The translations under genes and the position numbers were made by a program. A stretch of 64,000 nucleotides of DNA from Anaerolineae bacterium (lineage in GTDB: Bacteria > Chloroflexota > Anaerolineae > Fen-1058). A model generated the notes under the pieces. The model was not told the DNA's origin. It did not search any database and saw only the letters and a program-made list of their open reading frames with translations. Location of the stretch: assembly GCA_035693785.1 (NCBI GenBank), contig DASSFZ010000212.1:4647-68646 (forward strand), written 5' to 3'. Below, piece by piece: positions 193-24,068 of the stretch. Numbering within the stretch: the stretch's first letter is position 1; each line of letters begins with the position of its first letter.

Positions 193-1149
193 TCAGGCCT
201 CGATTCGCATACCCGTCAGGTTGATGAACGCATCTTCCAGCGTCGGCCCCTGCACCGTCACGGCGTTGGCCGTCACACCGTGGTCGTGCAGATAGTTCAA
301 CACATAGGGCATCTTGCCCACCGCATCGTCGAGATACAGCCGGGCGATACGCTGATGGTAATTGCCCACAATGACGTACTTCTCGATCTCGCCGGCGCGC
401 ACCAGGGGAATCAGCATGGCGTCGGTCAGGTTGGGCGCGTGAACTTCCAGACTGCTCTTGCCGCTCACCTGCGACCTGATCTCGTGTGGCGCACCTTCGG
501 CCACTTTGCGGCCGCGATGCAGAATCGCCAGCCGATCGCACAGGCGATCGGCCTCTTCCATATAGTGCGTGGTGAGGATCACCGTGCAGCCGCGCGCTTT
601 CATTTCGCCGACCATGTCCCACACACTACGCCGAGAGGCCGGGTCCAGGCCGGCGGTTGGCTCGTCCAGGAAGACGAACTGAGGCGAGAGCATCATCACG
701 CGAGCCAGATCGAGCTTGCGCTTCATGCCGCCGGAGAACGAATCAACCAGGTGCCGTTCCTTGCCGTCCAGGTTGGCCCAGCGGAACGCTTCTCGTAGGC
801 GCTGTGCGCGCTCGGCGCCGCGCAGGCCGTGGATCTTGGCGTAGAAATCGAGGTTGTCATACGCCGTCAACATGCAGTCCAGGCAGGCATTCTGCGCGAC
901 GACGCCGATGCGCTGGCGCACCTGGGCGGGCTGCTTGCGCACGTCGTAACCGCCCACACTGGCCGTGCCGGACGAAGGTCGCAAGATGGTTGTCAAGATG
1001 CGCACTGCCGTCGTCTTGCCCGCGCCGTTGGGACCCAGCAGTCCAAAAATCTCGCCGGCCGCCACGTCCAGATCGAGCTCGGCCAACGCCAGGACGTTGC
1101 CGGCGTAGCGCTTGGTCAACTTGTGCGTACGTATTCCGTCGCTCATCAT
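193..1149 (-). CDS. ABC transporter ATP-binding protein (ABC-2/DrrA type, no peptidase or TM domain)
   Basis: Walker A GPNGAGKTT, signature FSGGMKRKL, Walker B FVFLDEPTAGLD. ATGATGA start/stop overlap with the upstream ligase gene; the second ATG (1146) is an equally possible start. Confidence 0.93.
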   Translation of the reverse strand: MMSDGIRTHKLTKRYAGNVLALAELDLDVAAGEIFGLLGPNGAGKTTAVRILTTILRPSSGTASVGGYDVRKQPAQVRQRIGVVAQNACLDCMLTAYDNLDFYAKIHGLRGAERAQRLREAFRWANLDGKERHLVDSFSGGMKRKLDLARVMMLSPQFVFLDEPTAGLDPASRRSVWDMVGEMKARGCTVILTTHYMEEADRLCDRLAILHRGRKVAEGAPHEIRSQVSGKSSLEVHAPNLTDAMLIPLVRAGEIEKYVIVGNYHQRIARLYLDDAVGKMPYVLNYLHDHGVTANAVTVQGPTLEDAFINLTGMRIEA

Positions 1150-2648
1150 CCCTCCACCGGTTGCTCGACCGGCAAAAACCAGCTGCCCGCGCGAATGATC
1201 GGGGACGGGTCGATCAACCGCTCCACTAGGGCTAACAGCGGTTGGTACTCGTCCGGCGCGCGCCCCGACACGGTATCCAGGTACAGGCGCGACTTGAGGG
1301 ACGCGCCGTCCCGAATGGGGATGGCGCCGGGCGGCACGCGAATCGCGGGGAAGAAGAATCGCTGTTTAGCAAAAGCGTGTGTCTCGCGCACTTCCGCCTC
1401 GCTTTTGCCACAGCACGCAGCCAGGATATGTCCGGCCATGCCAGTGTCCACACGCGGCACGTCCGGCGTATCATCTTCCAGGAACGTCACGACGATGCGT
1501 GGAAAGCCGCCATTCAAAGCGTAGTAGACGGGAAAGACGCGCCTGAAACCTTTCAGTTCCTGGGCAATCCATTGCAGGTTGTAAGTGCTGCCATTGATCC
1601 CGATGTAGGGCACTTGGACTTCGTGATCGCGGTGGTGGAAGCGCATAGAGCGTCCAGAGAAGCCACAGGCGCACTCGGCGGCGGGCGAAATTTCGACCAT
1701 GTCGGCGTTCAAGTGCTTGACGATGGGGAACACCGAGTTGGCGCAGGTAATGGCCAGCTCGCCGAAGCCGGTTTTCTCCATGCGGCCATTCTCCGCCTGG
1801 ATGCGGATGTCGCGCCGGCCGATCATACGCTGAAGGTCAAGCCCCTGGTAACACTCGCACGGAAACAGCCTGGTCAGCATCTGCAGCTTGAGGCCGCCCA
1901 ACCGGCCGAGCTGGCTGCTGATGGCCAACTTGAGCATGGTCGCCGGGTCAGCATCCGACAGGTGATACACCTCGCCGATGCCGGCGTGCGAGTAGCCGAA
2001 CAGCCCGCCCTCGGTGCATCCGAACACGCTGCCGTATTGGATGCCCATAGCCTCGATCTTGTGCGCCAGTTCCTGGTTGGGCAGCATCAACACCATCTGG
2101 ATGCCTGCCGCGCGCGGCTCCAGGCCGTGTTCGATCAGGTAGTTGAACCAGATGCCCGGCGAGTTATCCACGATGACATTGGGGCGTTCGCGTTCGATCA
2201 GATCCAAAACGTACGGCGCGTCGGAGAGCCTGTCGCGCGACACACCGACCAGGACCGAGCCAAAAGCCTTGGCACGTTCTTCTTCGTCAGGATTTACACA
2301 AAAGAGAAATCGGGGGCTGCCTTTGATCTGGCTGATAAAATTGAGGAAGATGCTCTGACACAGGAAAAACCATTCGGCTCTGAGCCAGGGAAAAGTGATG
2401 GGGCGATTAGTTGTGCCAGAAGTGTGTCGATACTCGATCTGCGTGTCGGGATAGGCAACCGGCAAGTAGTAGGGTTGGCCGGTTTCTTCCTCGTAGCGGA
2501 TGATGTCGCTTTTGGTGAGAAACGGAATGTCTTGCACGCCGGCCCGCTCCACGTCCACAGCAGCATTGTCGTACAGCCAGCGGTAGAACGGTTTCTCTTG
2601 GTAAGCCTGGCGCGCCAGCGCCAGAATGAATTCGTCACCGTCGTTCAT
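1146..2648 (-). CDS. PaaK / coenzyme F390 synthetase / CapK-like adenylate-forming enzyme (copy 1)
   Basis: N-terminal KPFYRWLYDNAAVDVERAGVQDIPFLTKSDI resembles the PaaK-type motif. ANL nucleotide loop is HTSGTTNRPITFPW. Start moved from 2696 to ATG 2648 (GGAGAA 7 nt upstream). Paralog of 4481-6010. Confidence 0.8.
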   Translation of the reverse strand: MNDGDEFILALARQAYQEKPFYRWLYDNAAVDVERAGVQDIPFLTKSDIIRYEEETGQPYYLPVAYPDTQIEYRHTSGTTNRPITFPWLRAEWFFLCQSIFLNFISQIKGSPRFLFCVNPDEEERAKAFGSVLVGVSRDRLSDAPYVLDLIERERPNVIVDNSPGIWFNYLIEHGLEPRAAGIQMVLMLPNQELAHKIEAMGIQYGSVFGCTEGGLFGYSHAGIGEVYHLSDADPATMLKLAISSQLGRLGGLKLQMLTRLFPCECYQGLDLQRMIGRRDIRIQAENGRMEKTGFGELAITCANSVFPIVKHLNADMVEISPAAECACGFSGRSMRFHHRDHEVQVPYIGINGSTYNLQWIAQELKGFRRVFPVYYALNGGFPRIVVTFLEDDTPDVPRVDTGMAGHILAACCGKSEAEVRETHAFAKQRFFFPAIRVPPGAIPIRDGASLKSRLYLDTVSGRAPDEYQPLLALVERLIDPSPIIRAGSWFLPVEQPVEG

Positions 2649-2706
2649 CAGACTTTCTCCGATCGTCACACATCGCGGTGCTGCCTCTCGCGCCACTGTC
2701 CGTTGC

Positions 2707-4101
2707 TCACAGGCAGGCGGGCTGCGTCGGCGCGGACACTTCCGTCGTTTGCTGCAACTGCAGGTATACAGGCACCAGTTGGCAGTCGAACGACGAGGTC
2801 GCCCTGAGTTGTCCTTGTTCGTAGTACGCCTGCGCCGGGCAGCGGCTGCAATACTTCTGGTAAGCGGGGCACGTCCGGCATTGGTCGGGATCCGCGAACC
2901 AGCGTTCTTCGCGCATTTGGCATAGCGCGGGCGATTGTCGCCAGATGTCGGCGAAACTCTCCCGCTCCAAGTCGCCCACTTCGATCATCAGTCGTTGACA
3001 CGGCGTCACGCGCCCGTTGGGCGTGATGGCATACTTGGTCCGAGCCGCACCACAGTATAAGTTAGGGAAGGGCCGGTACCAACCTCGCGACATCAGGTTT
3101 CGAATCTGGTCGAGCGACAGTCGATCGTTCAGCGTGTCGGTCGCGCCATTGGTGCGGGCGTATACGGCAATCGACAGGATAGGCTGAGACAGTCCCCAGG
3201 TCGCCGATAATCGCGCGAAATTGTCCACATCGTCGAAATTACGGCGAGTGACCACCATCCCCGGAATGACCTTGACGCCATGCTCCCGAAGCAGTGCGAC
3301 GCCGTGGCAGCTGCGTTCAAATGCGCCGTTCCGCCCTGCCAGACGATCGTGAACGTCCGGGCTGCCGCCGTGAAAGGAGACGGCGACGCTTTCGAGAGCC
3401 AGCCGGCCAAGGCGCTCGGCCAGCTCCGGGGTGATCAGCGTGCCGTTCGTCACAACCGATGTGACAAACCCACGCTGCACGGCGTATTCGAGAATCAACA
3501 TGAAGTCGGGGTGCGCCGTCGGTTCGCCGCCGCTCAGGCGGATGCACAGCGTGCCCGCCTCGGCTATTTGATCCAGGATGTCTCGCCAGTGGCTGAAGTC
3601 CAGCGCGCGCCCGCGCTGTCCGGCGTCGTAGCAGTAATAGCACTTCAGATTGCAGGCATGGGTCAGCGTCAGAGTGGCCACCAGTGGGACGCACTTCTCA
3701 TCAGCAGCACCGTAAAAGCGGGCGACCTGCGCAGGTACGGGCAAATTGGAGCGTCGATTCTGACGTGAGAAAGCGGGCGTCGTGCAACCCTCCAGTGTCA
3801 CGAGTCCGCTCTGGTGGAGTGCATGCACAAACCGAGCCACACTGTCCGTGACGGCGGCCAAGTCGGCATCGTAGTGCCGCGCCACGGCGCGCGCCATCTC
3901 CTCGCCTGTTCGGGTGCCGTCAGCCAACTGCCAGATATATGTTCCGACTCGATCCATACGGTGTTGGATGGTCGCACCTTCACGCAGGCTGATGATGAAC
4001 GTGTCGTCGCCGACGGTTCGCGAGCGCGCGGCCTCGTGGCGACTGATCCGGCGTTTCAATTCGTTCGCTGTGGGCTGTTCTGCACGACCGTTGCTGCCCA
4101 T
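2707..4101 (-). CDS. Radical SAM/SPASM peptide maturase with N-terminal PqqD/RRE-like domain (rSAM-1)
   Basis: THACNLKCYYCY (CxxxCxxC). C-terminal SPASM cysteines are CGAARTKYAITPNGRVTPCQ ... CRTCPAYQKYCSRCP. N-terminal FIISLREGATIQHRMDRVGTYIWQLADGTRTGEEMARAVARHY is PqqD-like. Start moved to ATG 4101 (AAGGAG 7 nt upstream). Confidence 0.9.
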   Translation of the reverse strand: MGSNGRAEQPTANELKRRISRHEAARSRTVGDDTFIISLREGATIQHRMDRVGTYIWQLADGTRTGEEMARAVARHYDADLAAVTDSVARFVHALHQSGLVTLEGCTTPAFSRQNRRSNLPVPAQVARFYGAADEKCVPLVATLTLTHACNLKCYYCYDAGQRGRALDFSHWRDILDQIAEAGTLCIRLSGGEPTAHPDFMLILEYAVQRGFVTSVVTNGTLITPELAERLGRLALESVAVSFHGGSPDVHDRLAGRNGAFERSCHGVALLREHGVKVIPGMVVTRRNFDDVDNFARLSATWGLSQPILSIAVYARTNGATDTLNDRLSLDQIRNLMSRGWYRPFPNLYCGAARTKYAITPNGRVTPCQRLMIEVGDLERESFADIWRQSPALCQMREERWFADPDQCRTCPAYQKYCSRCPAQAYYEQGQLRATSSFDCQLVPVYLQLQQTTEVSAPTQPACL

Positions 4102-4307
4102 CCGTACACTCCTTCGTAATCCCGATGGAGAGTGTCGCACTGTCCGGCAGTCGCTAACGAGTGCCTGCCACTAACCGAGACCGCTCAGTCAATCGTGACG
4201 TCCGTGTTGGCCGCAAGGGCCGTGACGCATGCACAGGCAACACTCTCCTCGACAGTCAGGGGAGACAATCCAGCCCTGGCTATGCTCGCTGGCTCGTCAG
4301 TGACGGA

Positions 4308-4388
4308 CTAGCAAGCGGCGGCGCACTCCTTCAGAGCTTCCGCTTCCTCGCCAACATCGAGTGTGATCAGCTCAGGCTCGGCGTACAT
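4308..4388 (-). CDS. Putative RiPP precursor peptide A, 26 aa: MYAEPELITLDVGEEAEALKECAAAC
   Basis: Hand-translated; too short for the ORF track. ATG 4388..4386 is preceded by GGAGG (GGAGGTAAGCAC-ATG). An in-frame TAG six codons upstream fixes the start. Stop is TAG at 4310..4308. It lies upstream of rSAM-1 (about 200 nt before its start) on the same strand. Confidence 0.65.
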   Translation of the reverse strand: MYAEPELITLDVGEEAEALKECAAAC

Positions 4389-4480: not shown

Positions 4481-6010
4481 TCAGGCCGGCGTTGGCTGAG
4501 AAACCTCAACGGGCAAGAACCAGCTTCCCGACCGGATGATGGCGGCGCGGTCGACAAGCTGGTCGATCAACGCCAGCACAGGTCGATACTCGTCGGGCAC
4601 GTATCCGGACACCGCATCCAGGTACAGGCGAGATTTGAGCGAATGTTGGTCTCGCAGGGGTATCGTCCCGACCGGAATGCGAACGGCCGGGAAAAATGGC
4701 AAGAAGTTCCTTCTCGATGAGATGAGGCGCATCGTCTCTGAATTGATGCCGGTTGCCGCCGTCATAATGCGCTCAGCCAGGTCGAGATCCAGGCAGGCTG
4801 CCGTCGCGAGTTCGTCTTCAACGAGCGTGACGACTATCCGAACCGTCGGGTCCGGTGCGATATGAATCGGGAAGACGCGCCGAAAGCCCTTCAGCCCGAG
4901 CGCGATGCCTTCCAGGCTGACGTTCATGCCGCCGCCCAGATAAGGAATCTGGACATTATGGTCGCGGCACTCGAACCGCATCGACTGCCCCACGAAGCCG
5001 CAGTCACACTTAGCCTCAGGATGAATCTCGACCCGATCGCTGTTTAAGTACTTGATGAAGGGGAATGCCGAATTCGCGCAAGTGATGACCAACTCGCCTG
5101 CACCGGCAGTGCTCAGTTCCCCATCCACCCGGCGCACTCGAATATCGCGCCGGCCGAACATGGCCTGCAGATCCATACCCTGATAGCAGTCGCAAGGGAA
5201 CAGCCGGCTGAACACCTGTAGCCGGATACCGCCTAACAGCGTTGGAGAGTCGCTGGCGGAACGGATCGGCTCTGCATCGGACAGGTGGTACACATCGCCC
5301 AGGCCGGCGTGCGCATAGCCGAAGAACCCGGCTTCCATACAGCCAAACGCGCTGACGTACTTCAGGCCCAAGGACTCCACCTTCTGGGCCAGTTCGGCGC
5401 TGGGATATGCACAGACCATTTGGATGCCGGCCCGGCACGGATCTAGGCCGTGGTCGAGGAGATAGTTAAACCACAGGCCCGGCGAATTATCGAGAAAGAT
5501 ATTGGGCCGATGCCTGGCGATGAGGTCTAAGACGTAGGGCGCGTCGGCCATGCGATCGTGCGGCACATTCACCAGCACCGACTGGAAGGCTCGCATCTCT
5601 TCCAGTTGATTGGGATTGACGGCGTTGAGGAAACGCGGGCGACCTTTGATTTGCTCGATGAAGTTCAACAGCAAGCTGTTGTAGAGGAACGACCACTCGG
5701 ACTTCAGCCAGGGTATCACCAGAGGCTGGCAGGTTGTGCCGGAGGTACGCAGATATTCCAAGCTGGAATCTGGATAGCCCAGCGGCAGATAATAGGGCTG
5801 CCCCGTCTCTTCCTCGTAGTGGAAGAAGTCCTTCTTGGTGATGAAGGGCAATCGTCGCACGTCCGCGTGTTCTACGTCCACGCTTGCGTTATCATAAAAC
5901 CAGCGGTAAAAGGGCTTTTCCTGATAAGCCTCGCGAGCGAGTGAGAGGATAAACTCGTCTCGCTGCCTCAGCCGCCCAACCGCGTTTTTCTCCTCGTGTC
6001 GCTTATCCAT
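4481..6010 (-). CDS. PaaK / coenzyme F390 synthetase / CapK-like adenylate-forming enzyme (copy 2)
   Basis: KPFYRWFYDNASVDVEHADVRRLPFITKKDF and RTSGTTCQPLVIPW. Clearly paralogous to 1146-2648 along its whole length. Start moved to ATG 6010 (GGAAGG upstream). Confidence 0.8.
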   Translation of the reverse strand: MDKRHEEKNAVGRLRQRDEFILSLAREAYQEKPFYRWFYDNASVDVEHADVRRLPFITKKDFFHYEEETGQPYYLPLGYPDSSLEYLRTSGTTCQPLVIPWLKSEWSFLYNSLLLNFIEQIKGRPRFLNAVNPNQLEEMRAFQSVLVNVPHDRMADAPYVLDLIARHRPNIFLDNSPGLWFNYLLDHGLDPCRAGIQMVCAYPSAELAQKVESLGLKYVSAFGCMEAGFFGYAHAGLGDVYHLSDAEPIRSASDSPTLLGGIRLQVFSRLFPCDCYQGMDLQAMFGRRDIRVRRVDGELSTAGAGELVITCANSAFPFIKYLNSDRVEIHPEAKCDCGFVGQSMRFECRDHNVQIPYLGGGMNVSLEGIALGLKGFRRVFPIHIAPDPTVRIVVTLVEDELATAACLDLDLAERIMTAATGINSETMRLISSRRNFLPFFPAVRIPVGTIPLRDQHSLKSRLYLDAVSGYVPDEYRPVLALIDQLVDRAAIIRSGSWFLPVEVSQPTPA

Positions 6011-6072
6011 TCCGAACCTTCCATCCCCGCCACGGCCAACCGATAGTCGCACGCGCGAATGTCGCCGGGCCG

Positions 6073-6630
6073 TCACGCCAAGGCGGTGTCAGCCATGACG
6101 AGCAGGTCTTCTCCGACGTCGATAGCGTCGTGTCGCTGGTCGGCGAACTGCGCCAATCGCCCCGTTAGGAGCGCCAGGCCGGACACGATCGATTCGCGTT
6201 CGAGGGCTGATAAGCCTGACAGCAGCCCCTGGAAAAACACGTTTTGCAACGTCCGAATTTGCGTGCTGCGCGCTTCGCCGCTCTCTGACAGCTTCAGACA
6301 AACGACACGCCGATCCCGTTCGTCGCACATCCGCTCTGTCAGGTTGGCTTTGACAAGCTTATCCGCGACCCGCGTCACCGTGCTGGCCGCCAACTTGGTA
6401 TAGTCGCTGATTTCGGTCATCGTCATCGGGCCGTTGACTTGCAGACCCATTAAGATGTAGCTTTGCAAAATGGTGATGTCCAGGGCGCCTAGCATCTCGC
6501 GGCTTAATACATAAAACAGGCGTATCAACTGCGGCAGATCGCGTTGCAGCCTGTTTGCCTCCGATAGATTCACGCTGGCTGGGTCGCAACACAACCGCTC
6601 GACGTACTCTTCCATCTGACGCCTCTTCAC
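6073..6630 (-). CDS. MarR family transcriptional regulator
   Basis: Winged-helix core LQSYILMGLQVNGPMTMTEISDYTKLAASTVTRVADKLVKANLTERMCDERDRRVVCLKLSESG is typical of MarR. An alternative start exists at MEEYV (6615). Confidence 0.85.
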   Translation of the reverse strand: MKRRQMEEYVERLCCDPASVNLSEANRLQRDLPQLIRLFYVLSREMLGALDITILQSYILMGLQVNGPMTMTEISDYTKLAASTVTRVADKLVKANLTERMCDERDRRVVCLKLSESGEARSTQIRTLQNVFFQGLLSGLSALERESIVSGLALLTGRLAQFADQRHDAIDVGEDLLVMADTALA

Positions 6631-6661: not shown

Positions 6662-8077
6662 TTAGGCCAGAGCGGCTACCATCTGATCACGCTGATCGAT
6701 GTAGGCAATCGCATGCGCCAATTGGCAGGCTTCTTGACAACGGCCGTCAAACGTCGTGCTCTCCAGATACGACAGGCCCACGCAATCGACGCAGTAAGAT
6801 CGCACACGGCATTCGCGACAGCCCGCCCGGTCTTTCGTCTCCAAATAAGAGCGGAAGCGAGCGATCCACTCCTGGCGCTCGGGGGAACGCAAAACCGTCT
6901 CGAAAGAATGGTGAGCCAGGTTGCCCAATTCGATCGTCGATAACATCTCGCATGGGTGCAACGAGCCATCCGGCCCTATGCGAAATCGGCTGACCCCCGC
7001 CGTGCATCGGCTGCGCCGCAGCGTGATGCCCAGTTGTGGCGTCATCGCCCTGAATTGTTCGCGAGTCGCCCGGTATTGCGTTGGAGCGGCGTTGCGCTGA
7101 ATCGTGGGATATACGAGCGGGCTGACCTGAAACCGAATGCCCAGTGAGTCCAGCCGGCGCTTGATCTCCAACAACTGATCGGCATTGTCGCTCATCAGTG
7201 TGCTGGTGACCGTGACCGGAACGCCGTGGGTATGGAGCGCCACAATCCCCTTCCACGTCCTCTTGAAGGAACGTGCGTTCCGCACAAAACGGTTGTGGTA
7301 GGCTTCTAAGCCGTATATGGGCACCCGCACCTCGACCAGCGAAACAGAGGCGAGCAATTCGACTAGTTCTTCGTCAAGCCGCGTACCGTTAGTCAGCAGT
7401 TCCACGGCGAAGTGCAGTTCATGAGCACGCTGCAGTATCTTGGTGAAGGCACGGTGCAGCGTCGGCTCGCCGCCAGTCAGAATCAACTCCAACACGCCGG
7501 CTTGCGCCATCTCGTCCAGGAGTTCTAGCTGGCGCGAAGTGGAGAGCGCCGACGTGCCCGGCACGCCTACGCCGAACCCCAAGTAACAATGCTGGCAGTG
7601 ATGATTGCAGTGATGCGTCAACTCAAAGAAGACCTTGAGCGGCAGCACCTGGGCGCTGGCCTTTTCAAACATAGTATCCAACACATCGGCTTCGGACACT
7701 TCCGGCTCGCCTCCGTTCGACACGGGTGATCTGAGCGAGAGGCTCGTCGCGCCATTCGGGGATTCTTCGGTGAACAAGCCCGCCGCCACAGCCGACACCA
7801 GAAACTCCTCCAGACCGGAGTCGAATTCATCGGGCGATACATCGAAGCGGGCGAGTATCTCGTCTCTGAATGCGTCGAAGGCCGCGCGCCGTTCGACGGA
7901 CGAGAACACTTCGACGCCAAGCCCGCCGACAATGGCGAATCGGTTCTCAACCTTTGCGCCTGTTCGCCAGCAGAACACTTCATCACCGACGAAGCGATAG
8001 GCCAGGTTGTCCGCGATCTTCAGGTGAGACCATGCCTGCCCGACTTTCCCGTCAGCACCAGAATCGTGATCGTTCAC
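6662..8077 (-). CDS. Radical SAM/SPASM peptide maturase with N-terminal PqqD/RRE-like domain (rSAM-2)
   Basis: THHCNHHCQHCY (CxxxCxxC). SPASM cysteines are CTAGVSRFRIGPDGSLHPCE ... CRECRVRSYCVDC. GTG start at 8077 with AGGAGA upstream. Confidence 0.9.
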   Translation of the reverse strand: MNDHDSGADGKVGQAWSHLKIADNLAYRFVGDEVFCWRTGAKVENRFAIVGGLGVEVFSSVERRAAFDAFRDEILARFDVSPDEFDSGLEEFLVSAVAAGLFTEESPNGATSLSLRSPVSNGGEPEVSEADVLDTMFEKASAQVLPLKVFFELTHHCNHHCQHCYLGFGVGVPGTSALSTSRQLELLDEMAQAGVLELILTGGEPTLHRAFTKILQRAHELHFAVELLTNGTRLDEELVELLASVSLVEVRVPIYGLEAYHNRFVRNARSFKRTWKGIVALHTHGVPVTVTSTLMSDNADQLLEIKRRLDSLGIRFQVSPLVYPTIQRNAAPTQYRATREQFRAMTPQLGITLRRSRCTAGVSRFRIGPDGSLHPCEMLSTIELGNLAHHSFETVLRSPERQEWIARFRSYLETKDRAGCRECRVRSYCVDCVGLSYLESTTFDGRCQEACQLAHAIAYIDQRDQMVAALA

Positions 8078-8195
8078 ACCATATTCTCCTGATCGAGTAT
8101 CAACACGTCCGGCTCATAGCCCCTGAAACCGTGGCGGGGCGCCTCTGGGCACGCTGCGCCAAATCCGTCCTTTATGGTCTCACCGTTGAGAACCA

Positions 8196-8225
8196 CGAGC
8201 GCCCGGTTTCGGCGCTCGGTTTTTG
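8196..8225. terminator. GC-rich hairpin with flanking A5/T5 tracts between precursor B and rSAM-2
   Basis: CGAGCGCC-cggtttc-GGCGCTCG (8 bp stem) is followed by gTTTTTg on the plus strand. On the coding (minus) strand the stem is preceded by AAAAA and followed only by a weak U-containing tail (GUGGUUCUC). Confidence 0.35.
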
Positions 8226-8261
8226 CCCCCCCGCCTTACGGTGTATCGAAGAGCGACTCGA

Positions 8262-8330
8262 TTAGCAGCCTGAGCCGCACGCAACGGCGCCACTGGTGCG
8301 GCGCGTCTTTCCAACGACGAGCTTGAACAT
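8262..8330 (-). CDS. Putative RiPP precursor peptide B, 22 aa: MFKLVVGKTRRTSGAVACGSGC (34 aa if started at ATG 8366)
   Basis: Hand-translated. ATG 8330..8328 is preceded by AAGGAGG (AAGGAGGTATAAGC-ATG). Stop is TAA at 8264..8262. An in-frame upstream ATG at 8366 would give MFRILNFQGGISMFKLVV... but has no SD. The ORF lies between rSAM-3 and rSAM-2 on the same strand. Confidence 0.6.
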   Translation of the reverse strand: MFKLVVGKTRRTSGAVACGSGC

Positions 8331-8555
8331 GCTTATACCTCCTTGGAAGTTCAGAATTCGGAACATGGTGCCATCCACATCTCGGCAGATACTCACGACC
8401 GATTCGCGAGATGCCAATCAGCACACAAGCTGACTGTACACGAGACCGTCAAGGGCGTGGTACACCAACGGGCCCAGAGGCAACAAGTTGATACCAACTC
8501 TGTTTTAACCAATGTCAGTTGATGCCCTCATGAGTGCGCGCCACAGGCAGTGGCC

Positions 8556-9884
8556 TCACGCTGGCTGTCGTTCAAGCGCGTACGTTTCCTGCTTCGCCTC
8601 GGCGCACAAGCGCGCGACGCGGCAGGCCTCGCTCGAAGGGCTATTCGGATTGCCGTCTTCCATCTCGGCCAACGCCGGGCAGCGACGGCAGTAATCCGAC
8701 CATGCGCAAGCGTGGCAGGCTTCGGGCGTGCAGAAAAACTCGGACGCCCGGAATGCTTCCAACTCGGCCCCGCGCCAGATATCTTCAAACGCCTGCTCAC
8801 GCAGGTTCCCAAAGGAACGCCGCACCAGCTCGCAGGGATAAACATCACCGAATGGTGAGATGCGCGCTTTAGTGGTGGCGGCTGTGCATACGCTTCGCCG
8901 GCGCACCAGCTTGCCCTGCCGCGCCAGATCCAGCACCCAGTCATCCGAAATACGATAATCCAGTGGCGCGAGTGAGCCGTTGACGTTTGGCAGCAGGTGA
9001 ACATTCAGAGCAAAGCCCACCTGCCATTGCTCGCACAGCCGGCGCAGGGCATCTTCCTCACGGACGTTGTGATACGTGGCATTGAAGATCACGTAAACGT
9101 TTGCGCCGGCTTGAGCCAGATACTCGATACCCCGGCAGGCCCGGCGAAACGATCCATTCACAGCGGTGAATGCATCGTGCGTGGACGGGCGCGCGCCGTG
9201 CAGGCTGACCTGCACCGTACACCAGCGCGCCAGCAGGTCTGCGTACGCCGGTGTGATCAACGTGGCATTCGTCAAAACCAGAATGGCAAACCGGCGCTCG
9301 TGGGCGAGCCGGATGAGCTGCTCCAGGTCGCGACGCGCGAAGGGTTCGCCGCCCGTGAAGCACAAGAACAGCGTCCCCGCTTCAGCCAGTTGATCAAGAA
9401 TCGATTGAACTTCTGATGTATTCAAAACCCGGTGGTTGTCTTTGGCCGTGTAGCAATACACGCAATCCAGATTACAGGCGTAGGTCGTCTCAAAATCAAC
9501 ACGAAATGGAACCCGCTGTCGCTTAACCTCGGTGATGACGAGCTCCGGCTGCCAACGCGTCGCTTCGCGGAATGACCGGCGCACGCCGCCAGTTTCGCCA
9601 TCGGCCGTGACAATCGAGCGGTCGTATAGCGAACGGACGAACTTGCACACATCCTGCGCGACCTGCGCGAGAGGCACGGCAAACTGGTCGCTGAGTGAAG
9701 CGGCGATTTCGCGCAACGGTGTCTGGCGCGTCAAATGCCCCCAAATCAACTCGCCGACGCCGGTCAGTTTGCTCGTTTCGCCAGTGCGCAGCGCGTAGAC
9801 ATAGACGCTGTCCCCCACTTTGCGGTAAGCGACATCATCCCTGAGCGCGATTTGTCTATCCAGCCAATTCAGATCGGCTTCCAT
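8556..9884 (-). CDS. Radical SAM/SPASM peptide maturase with N-terminal PqqD/RRE-like domain (rSAM-3)
   Basis: TYACNLDCVYCY (CxxxCxxC). SPASM cysteines are CTAATTKARISPFGDVYPCE ... CHACAWSDYCRRCP. PqqD-like segment is VYVYALRTGETSKLTGVGELIWGHLTRQTPLREIAASL. Start moved from 10139 to ATG 9884 (MEADLNWL); the exact start is uncertain. Confidence 0.88.
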   Translation of the reverse strand: MEADLNWLDRQIALRDDVAYRKVGDSVYVYALRTGETSKLTGVGELIWGHLTRQTPLREIAASLSDQFAVPLAQVAQDVCKFVRSLYDRSIVTADGETGGVRRSFREATRWQPELVITEVKRQRVPFRVDFETTYACNLDCVYCYTAKDNHRVLNTSEVQSILDQLAEAGTLFLCFTGGEPFARRDLEQLIRLAHERRFAILVLTNATLITPAYADLLARWCTVQVSLHGARPSTHDAFTAVNGSFRRACRGIEYLAQAGANVYVIFNATYHNVREEDALRRLCEQWQVGFALNVHLLPNVNGSLAPLDYRISDDWVLDLARQGKLVRRRSVCTAATTKARISPFGDVYPCELVRRSFGNLREQAFEDIWRGAELEAFRASEFFCTPEACHACAWSDYCRRCPALAEMEDGNPNSPSSEACRVARLCAEAKQETYALERQPA

Positions 9885-9979: not shown

Positions 9980-10034
9980 TTGCTACTAGCAACACTTGTA
10001 TCTGTATAGTATTGGGAAACCGCACGGCGCACAA
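9980..10034 (-). promoter_or_regulatory. Candidate sigma70-like promoter plus palindromic operator upstream of rSAM-3
   Basis: Minus strand: TTGTGC (10034..10029), 17 nt spacer, TACTAT (10011..10006). About 13 nt further downstream lies the perfect palindrome TTGCTAgTAGCAA (9992..9980). The stretch is locally AT-rich. The hexamers match the consensus only 3/6 and 4/6. Confidence 0.25.
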
Positions 10035-10125
10035 TGGCGCGCGGTCGAGTTCCGACCTAGACCCCAGTCTAGTTCGCGCCTCAAGCGATGTGCCGGCCAC
10101 TGGGCGTAAGCCGAACCACGACAGG

Positions 10126-10917
10126 TCAGATGCGCTCACGCATGCGGACGTAGTAGCGGCTCAGCACCACATCGGCCAGCCCTGGAAATGCTCGGAGGAA
10201 TGCAATCAGGGGGCGCCAGCTCGTCGGCAGGATGTCATGGCGACGCGGATGCCGGAGCAGTCTGGCAACGCGTTCGGCGACGACGTCGGAACACATCACG
10301 CCGCGCACGCGCTGGCCGTTGGCCAGCTTCTCGGCCGCGCGCCGCAGGCGTGGGCTGAAGTTGGTGGCGACAAAGCCTGGGCTTAGCACCGTCACGCGAA
10401 TGCCGCTGTCCTGCACTTCGCGCCGCAGCGCGTCGGAGAAACCGACGATCGCGGATTTGGTCGCGCAATAGATGCTGGCGCCCGGTATCCCGATCAGACC
10501 GGCGAGGGAAGCGACGTTGATGATGTGCCCCGACGACTGGCGCAGCATGGCCGGCAGCACCGCCTGCACGCAATCGATCACCGCGATCAGATTCACGTCG
10601 ATCTGTTCGCACACCTGGTCGGGATCCAGATCGATCACGCGCCGCGGGTAACTCAACCCGGCATTATTGACGAGCACATCCACGCGCCTCCACCGGTCGA
10701 GGGTGGCCTGGACCATGTGCTGGATGGCCGCGCGATCGCGCACGTCGGTCGGGACGACGAGGGCGCGCGTCTCGTCGCCGATTGCAGCGGCCACCCGTTC
10801 GAGTTCTTCTCGTCGCCGCGCGGCCAGCGTCACACACATTCCGTCACGCGCCAGGCGACGCGCCGTTGCCTCGCCAATTCCACTCGATGCGCCTGTCACG
10901 ATAGCCACTTTGTCCAC
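10126..10917 (-). CDS. Short-chain dehydrogenase/reductase (SDR)
   Basis: VTGASSGIGEATARRLA Rossmann motif and YCATKSAIVGFSDAL (YxxxK). GTG start with AGGAG 6 nt upstream. Confidence 0.88.
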   Translation of the reverse strand: MDKVAIVTGASSGIGEATARRLARDGMCVTLAARRREELERVAAAIGDETRALVVPTDVRDRAAIQHMVQATLDRWRRVDVLVNNAGLSYPRRVIDLDPDQVCEQIDVNLIAVIDCVQAVLPAMLRQSSGHIINVASLAGLIGIPGASIYCATKSAIVGFSDALRREVQDSGIRVTVLSPGFVATNFSPRLRRAAEKLANGQRVRGVMCSDVVAERVARLLRHPRRHDILPTSWRPLIAFLRAFPGLADVVLSRYYVRMRERI

Positions 10918-10975
10918 GATCGACTCCTACGTTGGCCGCTTGCGCGTCGATCCGACGCCTGGGCGGCGCGGCACC

Positions 10976-12406
10976 TCAAGCGCGAGCGACCGACCTTTTA
11001 GTCCGCGCCGCTTTGACGACGGCCACTGCTCGCTTGATCGGCGCGCCGACGGCTGCGTGTCGCCAGGCAGGCCCTGTCGTCCCCAGGCGTGTGCCCAGGC
11101 GCATGATAGCCTTGGCGATGGCCGAATCGCGTTGACGCGGGGCGAGCCAGGTCGGTTCCCGCCGCGCGTGATTCAAGACTCGCTCCATCATCTTCGGCGC
11201 AAGCTCTGGTGACAAATAGAAACGCGGTTCCAGCAGATCGTCGTCCGAGAACGCCCCCCCTTCCTGTTGGAGCACCTCGGCCAGGCCGGTGGCCGGAAAG
11301 ATGCGCAGTCCGAATGAATACGTCACGGCCGTGGCGCGCATCTTGCCAATGGCTGTCAACGTCTCCTCGATCGTTGTCGCCGTCTCGCCTAGCCCGCCGA
11401 AGATCAGATGGAAGAGGAACGGCAACCTGGCCTGGCAGCAGCCCTCACTGCAGGCGGCTACGTCGTCCAGCGTGAACCCCTTGCGCAACCGATGCAGCAT
11501 CCCATCGTTTGCCGCGTCGATGCCCAGCTCGACGCCGCTGCAGCCGGCGCGCCTCATCAGGCAGGCCAGCTCGGGCGACAGCGAGGACGGGTTGGCTCCG
11601 CACACCCAGTGCAGGTCGAGCCTGCGCCGCAGTATCTCCTCGCAGATCGCCGCAGCGTGATCCGGCGGATACGTGAACACCGCATCCACGAAATGGATCT
11701 TCTTCACGCCGGCGCGCGCCAATCGCTCCAACTCTTCGCCTACGTTCTGCGGAGAGCGCAGCCGCACGTCTCGCCCCTCGATCACGGGGTAGTTGCAGTA
11801 CAGGCACCGAAACGGGCAACCCCGCTTGGTCTGGACGTTAACCGCGCTGCCTGCCAGCTCGTACGTCCGGGAGACTGCCCGATCGCGCGTGGGAATGGGC
11901 AAAGCATCGAGATCGCGCACACGAGCCGGTGGCTGCCTGTCGCCTGGCGAGTCGCGGTTCGTCACAACGCCTGGGACACGATGCGGGTCACCGCACGCCA
12001 GCCACAACGGGAACGCCTCTTCGCCTTCGCCGACAATCCCGATTTGCAGGTCCAAGAAGCGCAGTATGGCCTGAGGAAAGATGGAGAAGCCCGACCCGCC
12101 GGCCACGATGGGCGCATGGAACGCCTGACGGCAGGCATCGACGATAGGGCGTATCGCAGGCAGGTAACGCACGGGCGCATCGTAAGTCAGGTTGTCGATG
12201 TTTCGGATGGACAGGCCGATGCAATCCGGCTTGAACGTCTGCACGGCATCGCGCGCGACCTGCGCCGCATCCTTTGCAAAGCACAGGTCCAGCAGGCGCG
12301 TCTCGATGCCCCGCTGTCGCAGGCTGGCATCCACATAGGCGAGTCCCAGCGGCAGGACCGGATAGGGCGACTGCTCCCGATTGGTGTAGATGAGCAAGAC
12401 TCTCAT
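10976..12406 (-). CDS. B12-binding domain radical SAM enzyme (class B type)
   Basis: N-terminal MRVLLIYTNREQSPYPVLPLGLAYVDASLRQRGIETRLLDL is B12-binding-domain-like. It is followed by TKRGCPFRCLYCNYP (CxxxCxxC). The ATG at 12406 overlaps the upstream KS stop (ATGA). Confidence 0.85.
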   Translation of the reverse strand: MRVLLIYTNREQSPYPVLPLGLAYVDASLRQRGIETRLLDLCFAKDAAQVARDAVQTFKPDCIGLSIRNIDNLTYDAPVRYLPAIRPIVDACRQAFHAPIVAGGSGFSIFPQAILRFLDLQIGIVGEGEEAFPLWLACGDPHRVPGVVTNRDSPGDRQPPARVRDLDALPIPTRDRAVSRTYELAGSAVNVQTKRGCPFRCLYCNYPVIEGRDVRLRSPQNVGEELERLARAGVKKIHFVDAVFTYPPDHAAAICEEILRRRLDLHWVCGANPSSLSPELACLMRRAGCSGVELGIDAANDGMLHRLRKGFTLDDVAACSEGCCQARLPFLFHLIFGGLGETATTIEETLTAIGKMRATAVTYSFGLRIFPATGLAEVLQQEGGAFSDDDLLEPRFYLSPELAPKMMERVLNHARREPTWLAPRQRDSAIAKAIMRLGTRLGTTGPAWRHAAVGAPIKRAVAVVKAARTKRSVARA

Positions 12407-13674
12407 GCCACTGGCTTCCTGTACACGACGGCATTGTTGCGCCCGAAAAACGAGATCGTGTTTTGCAGGATCGTCCGAATGGGAATTGCCCGGCCCACGT
12501 TCGGCACGTAATCCAGATCGCATTCGGGATCAGGCTCGCGATAGTTGATCGTCGGGGGCACGAAACCGTGCTCCATCACTAACGCGCACGTCACCGCCTG
12601 CATGATCCCGGCCGCGCCCTGCGTATGCCCGAGCATCGACTTGATCGCGCTGACCGGCACGCGACACGCCGCTTCACCAAACACGTTCTTGATCGTCTTG
12701 GTCTCGTTGACGTCGTTCAACTGTGTACTGGTACCGTGCGCGCATACGTAATCCACCTCGTCAGGCTGTACGCCCGCCTCGTGCAACGCCAGGCGCATGG
12801 CCCGCGCCGACTGTTCGCTCGTCGGGCTGGGAGCCGTCATGTGATAAGCATCCGCCGACGCGCCGTAGCCGGCCACCTCCGCGTAGATATGCGCGCCGCG
12901 CCGCCGGGCATGCTCCCACTCTTCCAGCAGGATCACGCCTGCGCCCTCGCCCATCACGAATCCGTTGCGCGTACGGTCGAAGGGACGCGACGCGCGTTCC
13001 GGCTCATCGTTGTGCTGCGACAGCACGTTGAGCATCGCGTAACTGTAGAAGATGTAGGGCTGGATCGGCGCCTCTGCGCCGCCTGCGATCATCAAGTCGG
13101 CCTCGCCATACTGGATCTGGCGAAAAGCGTAGCCCACTGCATCGGTGGACGACGCGCACGCTGCGGCGGTGACCGTGCTATCACCCTGCAGGCCGAACAT
13201 CCCGTTCACGCTCAGCGCCACCTGTCCCAAGAAAGTGGTCAAGACGTGACGCGCGCAGCGCTGCGCCTCCGCTTCGTCGCCACGGGCGGCTGCGGCGAAC
13301 AAGTCGTCCAAAAGAGGCAGACGCGCTTCCAAATCCCCCGCCGCCGAACCGATGCTCACCCCAGCACGCGTCCGATCTTCGGCGTCGAGCTGCACATCGG
13401 CATCGGCCAGCGCCTGCTGGGTCGCAACCAGCATGAATTGATTCGCGCGATCGGCTTGATCGGTCCAACGCGCAACGGCGGCGGCATCCAGATAGCGGCG
13501 CACATCGAAGACCTTCACTTCGGCAGCCATCGTGGAGCGGTAGCCGCTGGCATCGAACGCCTGGATCGGCCCTGCACCGGAGCGACCCGCCTTGAGGTTC
13601 TCCCAGAAGTCGCGTTTGCCGATCCCAATCGGCGACACGATCCCCACGCCGGTCAGCGCCACACGTCTAGCCAT
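12403..13674 (-). CDS. Beta-ketoacyl-ACP synthase (KS, FabF-like, full Cys-His-His triad)
   Basis: Active-site AAACASSTDAVGY, CAHGTSTQLND and LGHTQGAAG. The start overlaps the upstream CLF-like gene by 8 nt. Confidence 0.92.
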   Translation of the reverse strand: MARRVALTGVGIVSPIGIGKRDFWENLKAGRSGAGPIQAFDASGYRSTMAAEVKVFDVRRYLDAAAVARWTDQADRANQFMLVATQQALADADVQLDAEDRTRAGVSIGSAAGDLEARLPLLDDLFAAAARGDEAEAQRCARHVLTTFLGQVALSVNGMFGLQGDSTVTAAACASSTDAVGYAFRQIQYGEADLMIAGGAEAPIQPYIFYSYAMLNVLSQHNDEPERASRPFDRTRNGFVMGEGAGVILLEEWEHARRRGAHIYAEVAGYGASADAYHMTAPSPTSEQSARAMRLALHEAGVQPDEVDYVCAHGTSTQLNDVNETKTIKNVFGEAACRVPVSAIKSMLGHTQGAAGIMQAVTCALVMEHGFVPPTINYREPDPECDLDYVPNVGRAIPIRTILQNTISFFGRNNAVVYRKPVA

Positions 13675-14968
13675 CGGCAGGATCTCCTTCGCGCCAGCGC
13701 TTGTAGACGAGCGCGCCGCACTTGCCCAGGACAGATAGGCTGTTGTGTAGGATCACGGCGGGCGAGGCTGCCCGCGCCTGGTTGGGCACGTAATCCAGGT
13801 CGCACATCGGATCCGGCTGGCTGTAATTGATTGTCGGCGGCAGCAAGCCGCGCCCCAGCGCCAGACAGCAGCTCGCCGCTTGCAGCGCGCCGTCGGCGCC
13901 CAACGTATACCCGAATATGGGCTTGATGGAACTGACCGGCACGTCGTACGCGTGTTCGCCCAGAGCCTGCTTGATGGCCAGCGTCTCCCGGATGTCGCCC
14001 GCTTGAGTGCCGATGCCGTGCGCGGCGATGAACTCGACGCAGTCAGGAGCCAGGGCCGCATCCGCCAGCGCCATGCGCATGGCGAGGCTGGTATCGCCTG
14101 GCGCGTCGTGCGCCGGCAGGTCGTTGGCGGGCAGGCACGTCGCGGCATAGCCGGCCAGTTCGGCGTAGACGTGCGCGCCGCGCCGCAGCGCATGCTGCAT
14201 CTCTTCCAAGACGAGAATGGCCGCACCCTCGCCGAGCACAAACCCGTCCCGCCCGGCATCGAACGGCCGGCAGGCGCGCTCTGGCTGATCGTTGCGGCGC
14301 GACAGCAAGCCGAGGCCGTCGAACAGGATTAGCGACGAATGCAGGATCGGCGCTTCGCTGCCGCCAGCGATCATGACATCGGCCTCGTCGTACTTGATCT
14401 GCCGATACGCATAGCCCAGCGCATCCATGCCGGCGGTCTCGGCGGCGTAGACCGTCACGCCCGGCCCGCGCAACTGAAAATTGACCGTGATGTTGCCGAA
14501 CGACGCGCCGCTGCTGCCGATGATGCACGACAGGGCGTTCATCTTGTGAATGCCGCCTGTCTGGATGCGCTCTATCTCGCCGCGCGCCATACGGATCGGG
14601 CCGGCAAACGTGCCGATGCTCGTGCCTGCGCGTTCGGAGTCGCTCGGGGTGAGGGTGAGATCGGCATCCTCCATCGCCATCTGGGCGGCCGCATACGCAA
14701 AGCCCGACACGCGCTCCATGAAGCGCGCCTGCTTGCGGTCGGTGTAATCGTTGATGGAGAAGCCATCCACGCTGGCTGCGATGTGCACGCGCTGGCCCGG
14801 CCGAGGCTCAAGCGTGCGGATCGGCCCGGCGCACGAGCGGCCTTGACGGATGGCCTGCCAGAAGGCTTCTTTCCCGATGCCGGCCGGCGACACGACGCCA
14901 ATGCCGGTCACCACCACGCGGCGGCGCGCGTTTTGTCGTGTCGAGGCGTCATGTGTCAGCATAACCAT
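13667..14968 (-). CDS. Ketosynthase-like protein lacking the active-site Cys (chain-length-factor-like)
   Basis: KS fold throughout. The Cys position reads YAAETAGMDALGY and the second His motif reads FGYTLGADG. Start moved to ATG 14968 (MVMLTHDA...). Confidence 0.82.
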   Translation of the reverse strand: MVMLTHDASTRQNARRRVVVTGIGVVSPAGIGKEAFWQAIRQGRSCAGPIRTLEPRPGQRVHIAASVDGFSINDYTDRKQARFMERVSGFAYAAAQMAMEDADLTLTPSDSERAGTSIGTFAGPIRMARGEIERIQTGGIHKMNALSCIIGSSGASFGNITVNFQLRGPGVTVYAAETAGMDALGYAYRQIKYDEADVMIAGGSEAPILHSSLILFDGLGLLSRRNDQPERACRPFDAGRDGFVLGEGAAILVLEEMQHALRRGAHVYAELAGYAATCLPANDLPAHDAPGDTSLAMRMALADAALAPDCVEFIAAHGIGTQAGDIRETLAIKQALGEHAYDVPVSSIKPIFGYTLGADGALQAASCCLALGRGLLPPTINYSQPDPMCDLDYVPNQARAASPAVILHNSLSVLGKCGALVYKRWREGDPADG

Positions 14969-15399
14969 CCGATTTCCCCGTAGTGCAGATTCGCCGTCAT
15001 CAACAGCGCCAGCACCCGCTTCTGAGGATTGGGAGAGCGCCATAGTTCTTTGCGAAACTCGAGTTCGCGCTGGTGAATGCGGGTCTCGCTCATCAGCGGC
15101 CGCGAGCAACACAAGGGAGCCAGCAGGTCGAGATACTCGACGAGCTGGCCGACGGTGGAGATCTCGGCGGCGCGGGCCTCCAGCGTTTCCTCCCACGATG
15201 GATCGACGTACCGAAACACGTCGGCCTCGAACTCGCGCTCGATGGCGATTATGAGTTCCACGATGTCCAGCGAATCGGCGTCGAGGTCTTCGCGAAAACG
15301 GGCCTGGAGCGTCACGTCGTCCGGCGCGACATTGAGCGTATGCACAATGACATTTCGCATTCGCTCAAACGTGTTAAGCGAGTTCTTGCGTTCGCTCAT
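14956..15399 (-). CDS. Acyl carrier protein with ~55-60 aa C-terminal extension
   Basis: LDADSLDIVELIIAIEREF contains the DSL phosphopantetheine-attachment motif. Start ATG 15399 has GGAGAGAGG upstream. The ORF continues to 14956, giving 147 aa. Confidence 0.78.
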   Translation of the reverse strand: MSERKNSLNTFERMRNVIVHTLNVAPDDVTLQARFREDLDADSLDIVELIIAIEREFEADVFRYVDPSWEETLEARAAEISTVGQLVEYLDLLAPLCCSRPLMSETRIHQRELEFRKELWRSPNPQKRVLALLMTANLHYGEIGWLC

Positions 15400-15886
15400 C
15401 GGAACCTCTCTCCGCGCGCAGCCGCTCACCGGTGTGGTCGCCGGGCGACGCAATGACCACCTCGCCCTCGGCGACTGTCCCGCCGCCGGTGGTGATGCGA
15501 CCTTGAATCACCATCACGCCCAGGCAGGCTCGAATCACCGTCGCTTCGATGCGCAGCGAGTCGCCGGGCCGCGCCGGTTGGCGAAAGCGAAAGTTGCGAA
15601 TGCGCGCCAGGAAACCCAGGTAGGCAGTAGCCTCGTCGTCGTTCGACCCTGCCCGCAAGGCAATCCCGCCGACCTGCGCCACCATTTCGACCAGCAGAAC
15701 ACCCGGCACAATGGGATGATCGGGGAAGTGCCCGGCGAAGTACGGCTCGTTGATGCTAACGTTCTTGATCGCCACCGCGCGCCGTCCCGGCTCAACTTCG
15801 AGGACGCGATCGACGAACAGGAAGGGATAGCGGTGGGGAAGCAGCCGAAAGATATCCTGAATGTCCACGGCGTCCACCTCGCTCAC
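15374..15886 (-). CDS. fabZ: 3-hydroxyacyl-ACP dehydratase
   Basis: [14 protein letters not shown] and [28 protein letters not shown] (canonical FabZ His and Glu motifs). The GTG start overlaps the FabG stop (GTGA). Confidence 0.9.
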   Translation of the reverse strand: [170 protein letters not shown]

Positions 15887-17417: not shown

Positions 17418-17563
17418 AGCGCCTCCTCGCTCTCACAGTGCATCCGACATGTCATTCTGAGGCACGAAGCGCCGAAGAATCTCTGTTTTCGCGGCCCGAC
17501 ATGAGACACTTCGCTCGCTGCGCCCGCCCAGAGTGACGGCTGCACGGAGTCTTAAGACACACT

Positions 17564-18805: not shown

Positions 18806-18834
18806 GTCATCTCACCTTCTTTCTCAAACGCAAC

Positions 18835-20097: not shown

Positions 20098-20126
20098 ACG
20101 CCCGATCTCCAATCAGGTCGGCCAGG

Positions 20127-22302: not shown

Positions 22303-22349
22303 CGCTGGGCCTACCCGTCCGAAGTATCAGGGCGTCGCACGGCGAGTCA

Positions 22350-23846: not shown

Positions 23847-24068
23847 GGTTCCTCCTGTTTGGCACAGCGAGTTCCTGGCAACTGCAGGTGAACTGCGCGA
23901 TTCCGCCGGAACGGGAATAGCTATCGAACTCGGATCGAAACGGCGGGTCACACCCTTGCCGGCGAGTAGAGTTCAGCCATCTTCGTGTTATTAGCGGAAT
24001 GGCAACGACGACTCGGAGCTGTCTTTGAAGAGAGTATGCGATGCGGCGCAGGCAAGCAACAGCGGAAA

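Follow-up and report, generated by a model that had tools for sequence, protein, structure and literature searches.

Can an open reading frame (ORF) of only 22 codons, wedged between two genes for radical S-adenosylmethionine (rSAM) enzymes, be a genuine gene, and what would become of its product? The question is raised by a 64-kb stretch of DNA from an Anaerolineae bacterium (contig DASSFZ010000212.1), referred to in full as the window, whose minus strand carries at 8262..8330 an ORF encoding MFKLVVGKTRRTSGAVACGSGC followed by TAA, here called peptide B. Direct reading, orthologues in other loci and the conservation of the frame lead us to propose that it is the translated precursor gene of a peptide that is made on the ribosome and modified after its translation (RiPP), with a leader that is basic and a core, CGSGC, at the C-terminus, and that the C-x3-C core is cross-linked, probably by thioethers, by the flanking rSAM enzymes. 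We put the probability of this reading at about 0.7.

The first-pass annotation had described a perfect AAGGAGG 7 nt before ATG 8330 and a TAA directly after the last Cys, and all of these coordinates are confirmed on the minus strand: the Shine-Dalgarno (SD) sequence occupies 8338..8344 and is separated from the ATG (8330-8328) by the 7-nt spacer TATAAGC, and the TAA (8264-8262) abuts the last Cys of the 22-codon frame. The peptide has two Cys, no Asp or Glu, and a single ACGS without repeats. Two competing frames that the annotation had pointed out are also present as described. An in-frame ATG at 8366-8364 would prepend MFRILNFQGGIS and is preceded by DNA, GATGTGGATGGCACC, that holds no good SD; a 62-aa ORF (8236-8424) runs over the same DNA in another frame. 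In a six-frame scan of the window, C-x3-4-C-x0-1-stop motifs occur 16 times, and only two of them end an ORF of 15-60 aa with an SD and a start codon, namely peptide B and a second peptide, A (4388-4308), both just upstream of a co-oriented rSAM/SPASM gene. AAGGAGG itself is found in 12 copies on both strands of the window (~8 are expected from composition) and four long ORFs, of 132-460 aa, likewise have it 6-9 nt ahead of their ATG; because motif and spacing also head long ORFs, the motif alone is only suggestive.

Comparison with related loci is decisive. A search of 5.8 billion protein clusters for homologues of rSAM2, the enzyme encoded immediately downstream of peptide B, recovered a tiny family: besides an identical entry it has four members, which are 61, 59, 52 and 47% identical, and the next level is 30%. 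One related locus comes from a Chloroflexota metagenome-assembled genome. Genome and metagenome scans added no rSAM2-family loci to those known and otherwise returned unrelated rSAM genes, from Streptomyces and others, without such peptides; the more distant rSAM matches P0110 and P0031 are parts of other systems. Three of the four other rSAM2 homologues have a peptide ORF just upstream; the loci that carry it are, in all, the window (with L005), L008, L003/L004 and L002. The orthologues read MFKLVIGKTRRSSQGVCGTGC in L008 (347-412), MKKKYSKPTLLLGKTQRTSAVAHCVCAC in L003/L004 (272-358) and MKKYTKPLLLSGKTQRASAHAHCVCAC in L002 (130-213), and a GGAGG-type SD stands ahead of every one of them. Between the window and L008 the ORF DNA is 77% identical, as compared with 50% upstream and 47% downstream in the intergenic DNA, which is the shuffled baseline, and with 62-68% in the neighbouring rSAM2 coding DNA; the sole indel within the peptide ORF is 3 nt. 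The L003 and L002 pair behaves in the same way, with 72% identity in the ORF and ~49% in the flanks, and its codons divide into 13 identical, 10 synonymous and 5 non-synonymous.

A genome of 62% G+C abounds in long spurious ORFs as well as in short ORFs, and peptide B could itself be a chance frame, with the 62-aa ORF or the form starting at ATG 8366 as the real gene. The first-pass annotation had suggested comparing the two frames, and the alternative starts, across homologous loci. In L008 the 62-aa frame is broken by a stop codon within the overlap and its amino-acid sequence is not conserved, and it has no counterpart in L002 or L003, whereas the 22-aa frame is kept with mostly synonymous changes. 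ATG 8330 is likewise conserved; an ATG corresponding to 8366 is absent in L008 and unsupported by L002 and L003. The stop in the 62-aa frame and the missing ATG in L008 thus favour the 22-aa ORF from ATG 8330. On these grounds we rejected both the 62-aa ORF as a real gene and N-terminal extensions from ATG 8366, which also lacks an SD, or from TTG 8417. As far as sequence comparison can tell, the reading as a chance ORF or alternative frame is refuted by L008 and deserves next to no credence, peptide B is a real, conserved gene and ATG 8330 is its conserved start codon.

The genes on either side had been taken for maturases, and domain matches, alignment and a structural model all support the class, that is, rSAM/SPASM enzymes with a PqqD-like RiPP recognition element (RRE). 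Immediately upstream of peptide B lies rSAM3 (8556..9884, minus strand; 442 aa by the gene call on an identical contig, with an open frame to 10139) and immediately downstream lies rSAM2 (6662..8077, minus strand; 471 aa); a third such enzyme, rSAM1 (2707..4140, minus strand), follows peptide A. Pfam Radical_SAM and SPASM are found in all three, and PqqD in rSAM3 (E = 3.6e-9) and rSAM1 (E = 1.2e-10). In the translation of rSAM2 the CX3CX2C motif is visible and no SPASM cysteine is missing. For an RRE in rSAM2 the evidence is indirect: the N-terminal part of the enzyme can be aligned to the region of rSAM3 in which Pfam detects PqqD, its orthologue P0005 has a weak PqqD match, and the N-terminus of its AlphaFold model, four beta-strands followed by three helices with a predicted local distance difference test (pLDDT) score of 70-85 over residues 50-100, is consistent with an RRE fold. 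Judged by its recurrence next to the orthologues, rSAM2 is the conserved partner of the B-type peptides. In L008 and L018, too, an rSAM3-like gene comes before the peptide; that of L007 abuts the rSAM2 homologue.

Which known enzymes do these resemble? An rSAM2 family profile searched against the PDB matched SkfB best (E = 5e-26), then PqqE, BlsE, CteB and SuiB, and a fold search with the rSAM2 model gave SkfB, SuiB, PqqE, CteB and TigE as best matches. The three rSAMs match many SPASM-family models at scores that are all far below the curated cut-offs: rSAM2 reaches 83 bits for AlbA (cut-off 850), 85 for SkfB (300) and 82 for StsB (625), and rSAM1-3 reach 60-66 bits for PapB (340), 89-123 for MftC (265), 69-132 for PqqE (381) and 62-71 for rSAM_ACGX (400). 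These scores place rSAM1-3 outside every named equivalog. Beside the B-type peptides with three Cys, ending in HCVCAC, a second radical-SAM/SPASM gene is present (L001 1553-2860; L003 3794-4861), whose closest models are those of the thioether-forming QhpD (244 bits), PapB (232 bits) and SCIFF (227 bits) maturases and of nif11-type enzymes, with all of these scores under the cut-offs as well; in L003 a transposase fragment separates it from the first maturase.

Three of the features by which radical-SAM RiPPs (RaS-RiPPs) are recognized are found together at this locus: a conserved, co-oriented short ORF, a SPASM maturase with CX3CX2C, and a PqqD-like RRE. In the mechanism that we propose, peptide B would be translated from ATG 8330 and its leader, MFKLVVGKTRR..., would be bound by the PqqD-like RRE of rSAM2 and/or rSAM3, with rSAM2 as the conserved partner and rSAM3 probably as the second enzyme. 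5'-Deoxyadenosyl radicals would abstract hydrogen from a residue of the core, ...ACGSGC, and the two Cys thiols would capture the resulting carbon radicals to form intramolecular thioether rings, the acceptors being carbons of residues N-terminal to the Cys pair. After trimming, the product would leave the cell through the ABC transporter that ends the array, under the control of a MarR regulator, and the PaaK-type ligases of the array may contribute an additional ATP-dependent step. The lead towards thioethers comes from the sactionine synthase SkfB as the best PDB sequence match and from the second rSAM of the three-Cys loci, which is closest to QhpD, PapB and SCIFF. RRE binding, the pairing of enzymes and peptides, thioether chemistry, proteolysis and export are all steps that we infer.

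Known systems share parts of this arrangement. Thuricin CD is a two-component sactipeptide with the precursors TrnA and TrnB; its rSAM enzymes TrnC and TrnD form a complex that acts on the two (PMC12093266). Like the window, that system combines two short precursors, more than one rSAM/SPASM maturase in one operon, and ABC export. Its cysteines are also spaced C-x3-C, and they lie in the N-terminal half and are linked to acceptors further C-terminal. In the window, unlike thuricin CD, the Cys pair ends the peptide, the precursors have roughly half the length, and the A and B types separate in other genomes; searches with family models gave no sequence-level membership of the window enzymes in thuricin CD-type families. 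SkfB, the best relative by sequence and by fold search, resembles rSAM2 in joining an RRE, an rSAM domain and a C-terminal Fe-S domain. It makes a single Cys thioether, and in place of a full SPASM domain it has a twitch domain. It differs further in that rSAM2 stays at 85 bits against its cut-off of 300 and in that the precursors are unrelated. We rejected assignment to the sactipeptides since rSAM2 falls below the AlbA, SkfB and StsB cut-offs, and the hairpin topology of that class, in which the donor Cys precede the acceptors of their S-to-C-alpha thioethers, fails because a Cys pair within the last five residues leaves no C-terminal acceptors.

In ranthipeptide and QhpD-type synthases (PapB-freyrasin, SCIFF CteB/Tte1186, QhpD) Cys thiols are the donors for radical thioethers, in motifs such as C-x3-D (PMC9413430). 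The likeness here is that of a sub-threshold PapB/QhpD/SCIFF-like rSAM beside the three-Cys B-type peptides, in L001 and L003 only; the window enzymes, at 60-66 bits against the PapB cut-off of 340, and peptide B, with neither an Asp/Glu acceptor nor a six-Cys pattern, are different. The PapB/SCIFF class was accordingly rejected on low PapB scores and the missing C-x3-D/E or six-Cys motif. An ACGX-repeat system (TIGR04340/04341) was also rejected, as the rSAM_ACGX scores, 62-71 bits, do not reach the cut-off of 400, ACGS occurs once in the peptide and is not repeated, and no NCBIfam peptide model matches.

The Cys pair and the leader can be judged more broadly with the second peptide. Peptide A, MYAEPELITLDVGEEAEALKECAAAC (4308..4388, minus strand), has relatives in L018 and L019, and the few relatives of rSAM1 have A-type peptides upstream of them. 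In L018 the A-type peptide, MYTKPEVITVEFAAAEDSPKATGCGSSGC, lies between an rSAM3-like gene and the rSAM1 homologue, and a PaaK-like gene comes next. L019/L020 encode two A-type copies, MKHYQKPQVVSVRLPAERSFVNICDIGCA and ...VNVCDSGCA, in a neighbourhood with three tandem RRE-rSAM-SPASM genes, a methyltransferase, TldD/PmbA and an ABC transporter. In an alignment of eight peptides the two Cys alone are invariant. The first-pass annotation had asked whether the C-terminal C-x3-C is the conserved element. In the B type C-x3-C-stop is indeed the most conserved one, with the endings CGSGC, CGTGC and, twice, CVCAC. In the wider family the pattern is not strict, as L018 has C-x4-C (CGSSGC) and the L019 peptides carry a trailing Ala (CDIGCA, CDSGCA).

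The same annotation had held that the leader of peptide B is unrelated to that of peptide A and that only the terminal Cys feature is shared. This does not survive the alignment, in which an N-terminal Y-x-x-P-x-(L/V), mostly with Lys before Pro, is common to the A-type and the distant B-type peptides: the latter start with MKK(K)Y(S/T)KPxLL, and A-type peptides start with MYAEPELI, MYTKPEVI or MKHYQKPQVV. The shared motif makes the A and B leaders divergent relatives. Window peptide B and its L008 orthologue, to judge from this alignment, are forms that lost the YxKP segment. The motif is reminiscent of the leaders of lasso peptides and PqqA, which are bound by RREs; the aromatic-x-K-P-x-hydrophobic start of the relatives' peptides is like that of PqqA.

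The pairing of each peptide with its own adjacent maturase had also been suggested, together with the choice between parallel pathways and a two-component product. The neighbours are indeed RRE-rSAM-SPASM maturases, but the pairing is less exclusive than one to one, as peptide B lies between rSAM3 and rSAM2, an order kept in L008, and the L018 A-type peptide between rSAM3-like and rSAM1-like genes. The window holds both peptide types and three rSAMs in one array, whereas on the DNA recovered elsewhere, where many contigs are short, B-type loci (L001/L003) occur without the A type and A-type loci (L019) without the B type. Their separate occurrence favours parallel modules over an obligate two-component product, and peptide A with rSAM1 is, on this distribution, a parallel and distantly related module of the same array.

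Several observations weigh against a cross-linked RiPP. Cysteines placed at the very C-terminus would turn the classical sactipeptide topology around, and peptide B offers no Asp or Glu acceptor of the PapB/QhpD type. The YxKPx(L/V) segment is missing from window peptide B and its L008 orthologue, which makes recognition by an RRE less obvious. In rSAM2 itself Pfam detects no significant PqqD match, its AlphaFold model is of moderate quality (pLDDT 61), and matches of the maturases to named thioether synthases are all far below curated cut-offs. L007, whose rSAM2 homologue shows 61% identity, has only 30 bp between its rSAM3-like and rSAM2-like genes (184-254) and no peptide gene there; the precursor gene may be elsewhere, as is possible given a contig of 2 kb, or lost. 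Finally, the B-type sample comprises four distinct sequences from a handful of lineages, and all sequences are metagenomic.

The small size of the precursors invites another reading, that peptide B is the source of a cofactor or metabolite in the manner of PqqA or MftA, its last residues being modified, for instance by oxidative decarboxylation or cyclization of the C-terminal Cys, before peptidases free a small dithiol-derived molecule. PqqA and MftA precursors are likewise very short, at ~22-30 aa, as are the 21-31 aa peptides here, and pyrroloquinoline quinone (PQQ; PqqA/D/E) and mycofactocin (MftA/B/C) biosynthesis share with the window a PqqD-type RRE and an rSAM/SPASM enzyme acting at or near the C-terminus, as is predicted here. 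The last five residues are the conserved reactive ones, MftC and PqqE are among the better sub-threshold models for all three enzymes, with rSAM3 aligning to MftC nearly over its full length, and peptidases (TldD/PmbA, M3) occur in related loci. Those alignments remain, however, at 89-123 against 265 bits for MftC and 69-132 against 381 bits for PqqE, below the family cut-offs, and the reactive residues would be Cys rather than Glu/Tyr or Val-Tyr: the precursor motifs of both systems (C-terminal GVY and E-x3-Y) are absent from peptide B. The neighbourhoods differ too, in that ABC exporters, a CPBP-type protease and MarR are typical of secreted bioactive RiPPs, PaaK-like ligases are present, and redox-enzyme partners like those of mycofactocin or PQQ were not observed. 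The extreme rarity of the family would be unusual for a cofactor. On balance a cofactor precursor seems unlikely, and we prefer a secreted, cross-linked peptide.

The array as a whole runs on the minus strand in the order rSAM3, peptide B, a hairpin, rSAM2, MarR, a 531-aa protein, peptide A, rSAM1, a 516-aa paralogue and an ABC ATPase. The MarR-family regulator (6073..6630, minus strand) lies downstream of rSAM2, a synteny kept in L007 and L008. The ABC-transporter ATPase (193..1149, minus strand), identified by a domain match, is a probable export or immunity component; pairs of an ABC ATPase and an ABC-2 permease are also found in L001, L003 and L019, and related loci hold a CPBP protease, a GNAT protein, an M3 peptidase and TldD/PmbA. 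In the 240-bp gap upstream of rSAM3 we also noted a 32-aa ORF with a TTG start (9986-10084, minus strand), which ends in ...HCAPCGFPILYRYKCC-stop and has no obvious SD.

The hairpin (8196..8218) is GC-rich with an 8-bp stem (z = -2.4) and begins 44 nt after the peptide B stop codon. A short ORF immediately upstream of a gene for an Fe-S enzyme, followed by a strong hairpin, could be an attenuator, an upstream ORF at whose Cys codons stalled ribosomes would tune the transcription or translation of rSAM2. The T-run of the hairpin is on the plus strand only, and a pattern scan reads it as a plus-strand terminator, yet no plus-strand gene ends there; no equivalent hairpin was found in L008, L003 or L002. 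The whole peptide is conserved at the amino-acid level, its relatives carry an RRE-type leader motif, and in L002 and L003 another small gene rather than the maturase comes directly after it. An attenuator with a terminator was rejected because the hairpin is unconserved and lacks a T-run on the sense strand, and we consider a regulatory upstream ORF very improbable. The hairpin may instead be a transcript-stabilizing or partial-terminator element between the precursor and maturase genes.

Two further observations concern the gap between peptide and maturase. On the minus strand at ~8110-8140, the window can be matched in frame to ~478-505 of L008 (RHGFRGYEPDV and RYHGFETDV), with differences only at third positions and with unalignable intergenic DNA around; the stretch has no convincing start codon or SD, and the match may be chance or a small conserved element. 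In L002 (249-371, 40 aa) and L003 (385-498, 37 aa), and also in L004, L013 and L014, the B-type peptide and the rSAM2 homologue have a second small gene between them. It has its own GGAG SD, was already gene-called, contains no Cys and has a conserved C-terminus, (V/T)ELPL(I/L)G(T/A)KD(D/P)G(G/D)-stop; no counterpart of this gene (...ELPLIGTKDDGG) was found in the window or in the other loci. Its product may serve as another precursor or as an accessory peptide.

The 531-aa (4481..6076, minus strand) and 516-aa (1146..2696, minus strand) proteins of the array are paralogues, 58% identical, that have no Pfam match on their own and are nearly orphans, with only ~64 distant representatives among 1.84 billion proteins. 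A profile built from 29 distant representatives and the two paralogues matches phenylacetate-CoA ligase structures near full length (4r1l, E = 1e-29). The PDB match and a TSGTT motif present in the paralogues identify them as divergent adenylate-forming ligases of the PaaK family, within the ANL ligases. An AlphaFold model of the PaaK-like protein was unusable (pLDDT 32), and the family call rests on the profile search instead. L017 and L018 likewise have a homologue of the 516-aa ligase after their rSAM1 homologues.

Their interleaving with the peptide and maturase genes suggests that the two ligases add a further ATP-dependent step, acylation or cyclization. The product could then be a hybrid, in which the ligases, after rSAM modification, activate either the C-terminus of the peptide, for a thiolactone or lactam with the Cys four residues upstream, or an acid supplied by a neighbouring fatty acid-like gene cluster, for a lipopeptide. 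The recurrence of a PaaK homologue directly after rSAM1 homologues in L017 and L018 fits this idea, as does a GNAT acyltransferase in place of the ligase in distant B-type loci. Immediately upstream of the array, on the same strand, lies a fatty acid synthase-like lipid gene cluster (10126-23951, minus strand) with four to five ketosynthases, three short-chain dehydrogenases/reductases, a B12-binding rSAM, a second B12-binding protein and an rSAM with an HMPTM-type zinc ribbon; the B12-rSAM scores 345 bits against the cut-off of 360 of the 'lipid biosynthesis' model TIGR04072. On the other side, the failed PaaK-like structure prediction, the distant B-type loci that lack such a ligase, and a lipid-gene linkage that is seen only in this genome, with 240 bp between the gene sets, make a hybrid product doubtful. 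We regard as equally speculative the more specific idea that Cys-tail peptides are substrates on which rSAMs and PaaK ligases act together at a five-residue C-x3-C unit; one possibility would be a five-residue thiolactone like that of autoinducing peptides, made via an adenylated C-terminus, and another would be joining to the lipid of the B12-rSAM/ketosynthase cluster. A peptide cross-linked by its rSAM enzymes remains the reading that we favour.

How new is such a system? RRE-dependent rSAM/SPASM RiPPs are well known as a type; what is new here is that the precursors form a family of their own, are extremely short and end in a Cys pair, and that they have partners of the PaaK type. NCBIfam and Pfam contain no family for any of the eight peptides at E-values up to 10, save two insignificant N-terminal matches to an SSH-motif RaS-RiPP model and a cyanobacterial lasso model, and an exact look-up of the eight peptides and two alternative-start versions among ~15 billion called proteins found none present. 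Peptide B, conserved in other loci and absent from those proteins, is thus the unannotated short gene that the first-pass annotation had taken it for. Literature searches directed at rSAM RiPPs that have C-terminal cysteines, that involve PaaK ligases or that come from Chloroflexi yielded no account of the family.

If our reading is correct, the peptides would constitute a new family of very small precursors (21-31 aa) with an invariant C-terminal Cys pair and dedicated rSAM maturases in Anaerolineae/Chloroflexota, a phylum from which, to our knowledge, almost no RiPPs have been characterized. With one 22-aa peptide, two enzymes and two cysteines it is a compact, testable system, which could show how RRE-rSAM-SPASM enzymes act on a Cys pair at the extreme C-terminus and what role PaaK-type ligases have in a RiPP pathway; should rSAM and PaaK enzymes cooperate, the outcome would be very small peptides from Chloroflexota, macrocyclic or lipidated, that form a new class with a RiPP logic not described before. 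Most likely, the peptide B system is a rare natural-product family of Chloroflexota, and since its peptides were not called as genes and are not recognized by curated models, they show how much RiPP diversity standard annotation misses.

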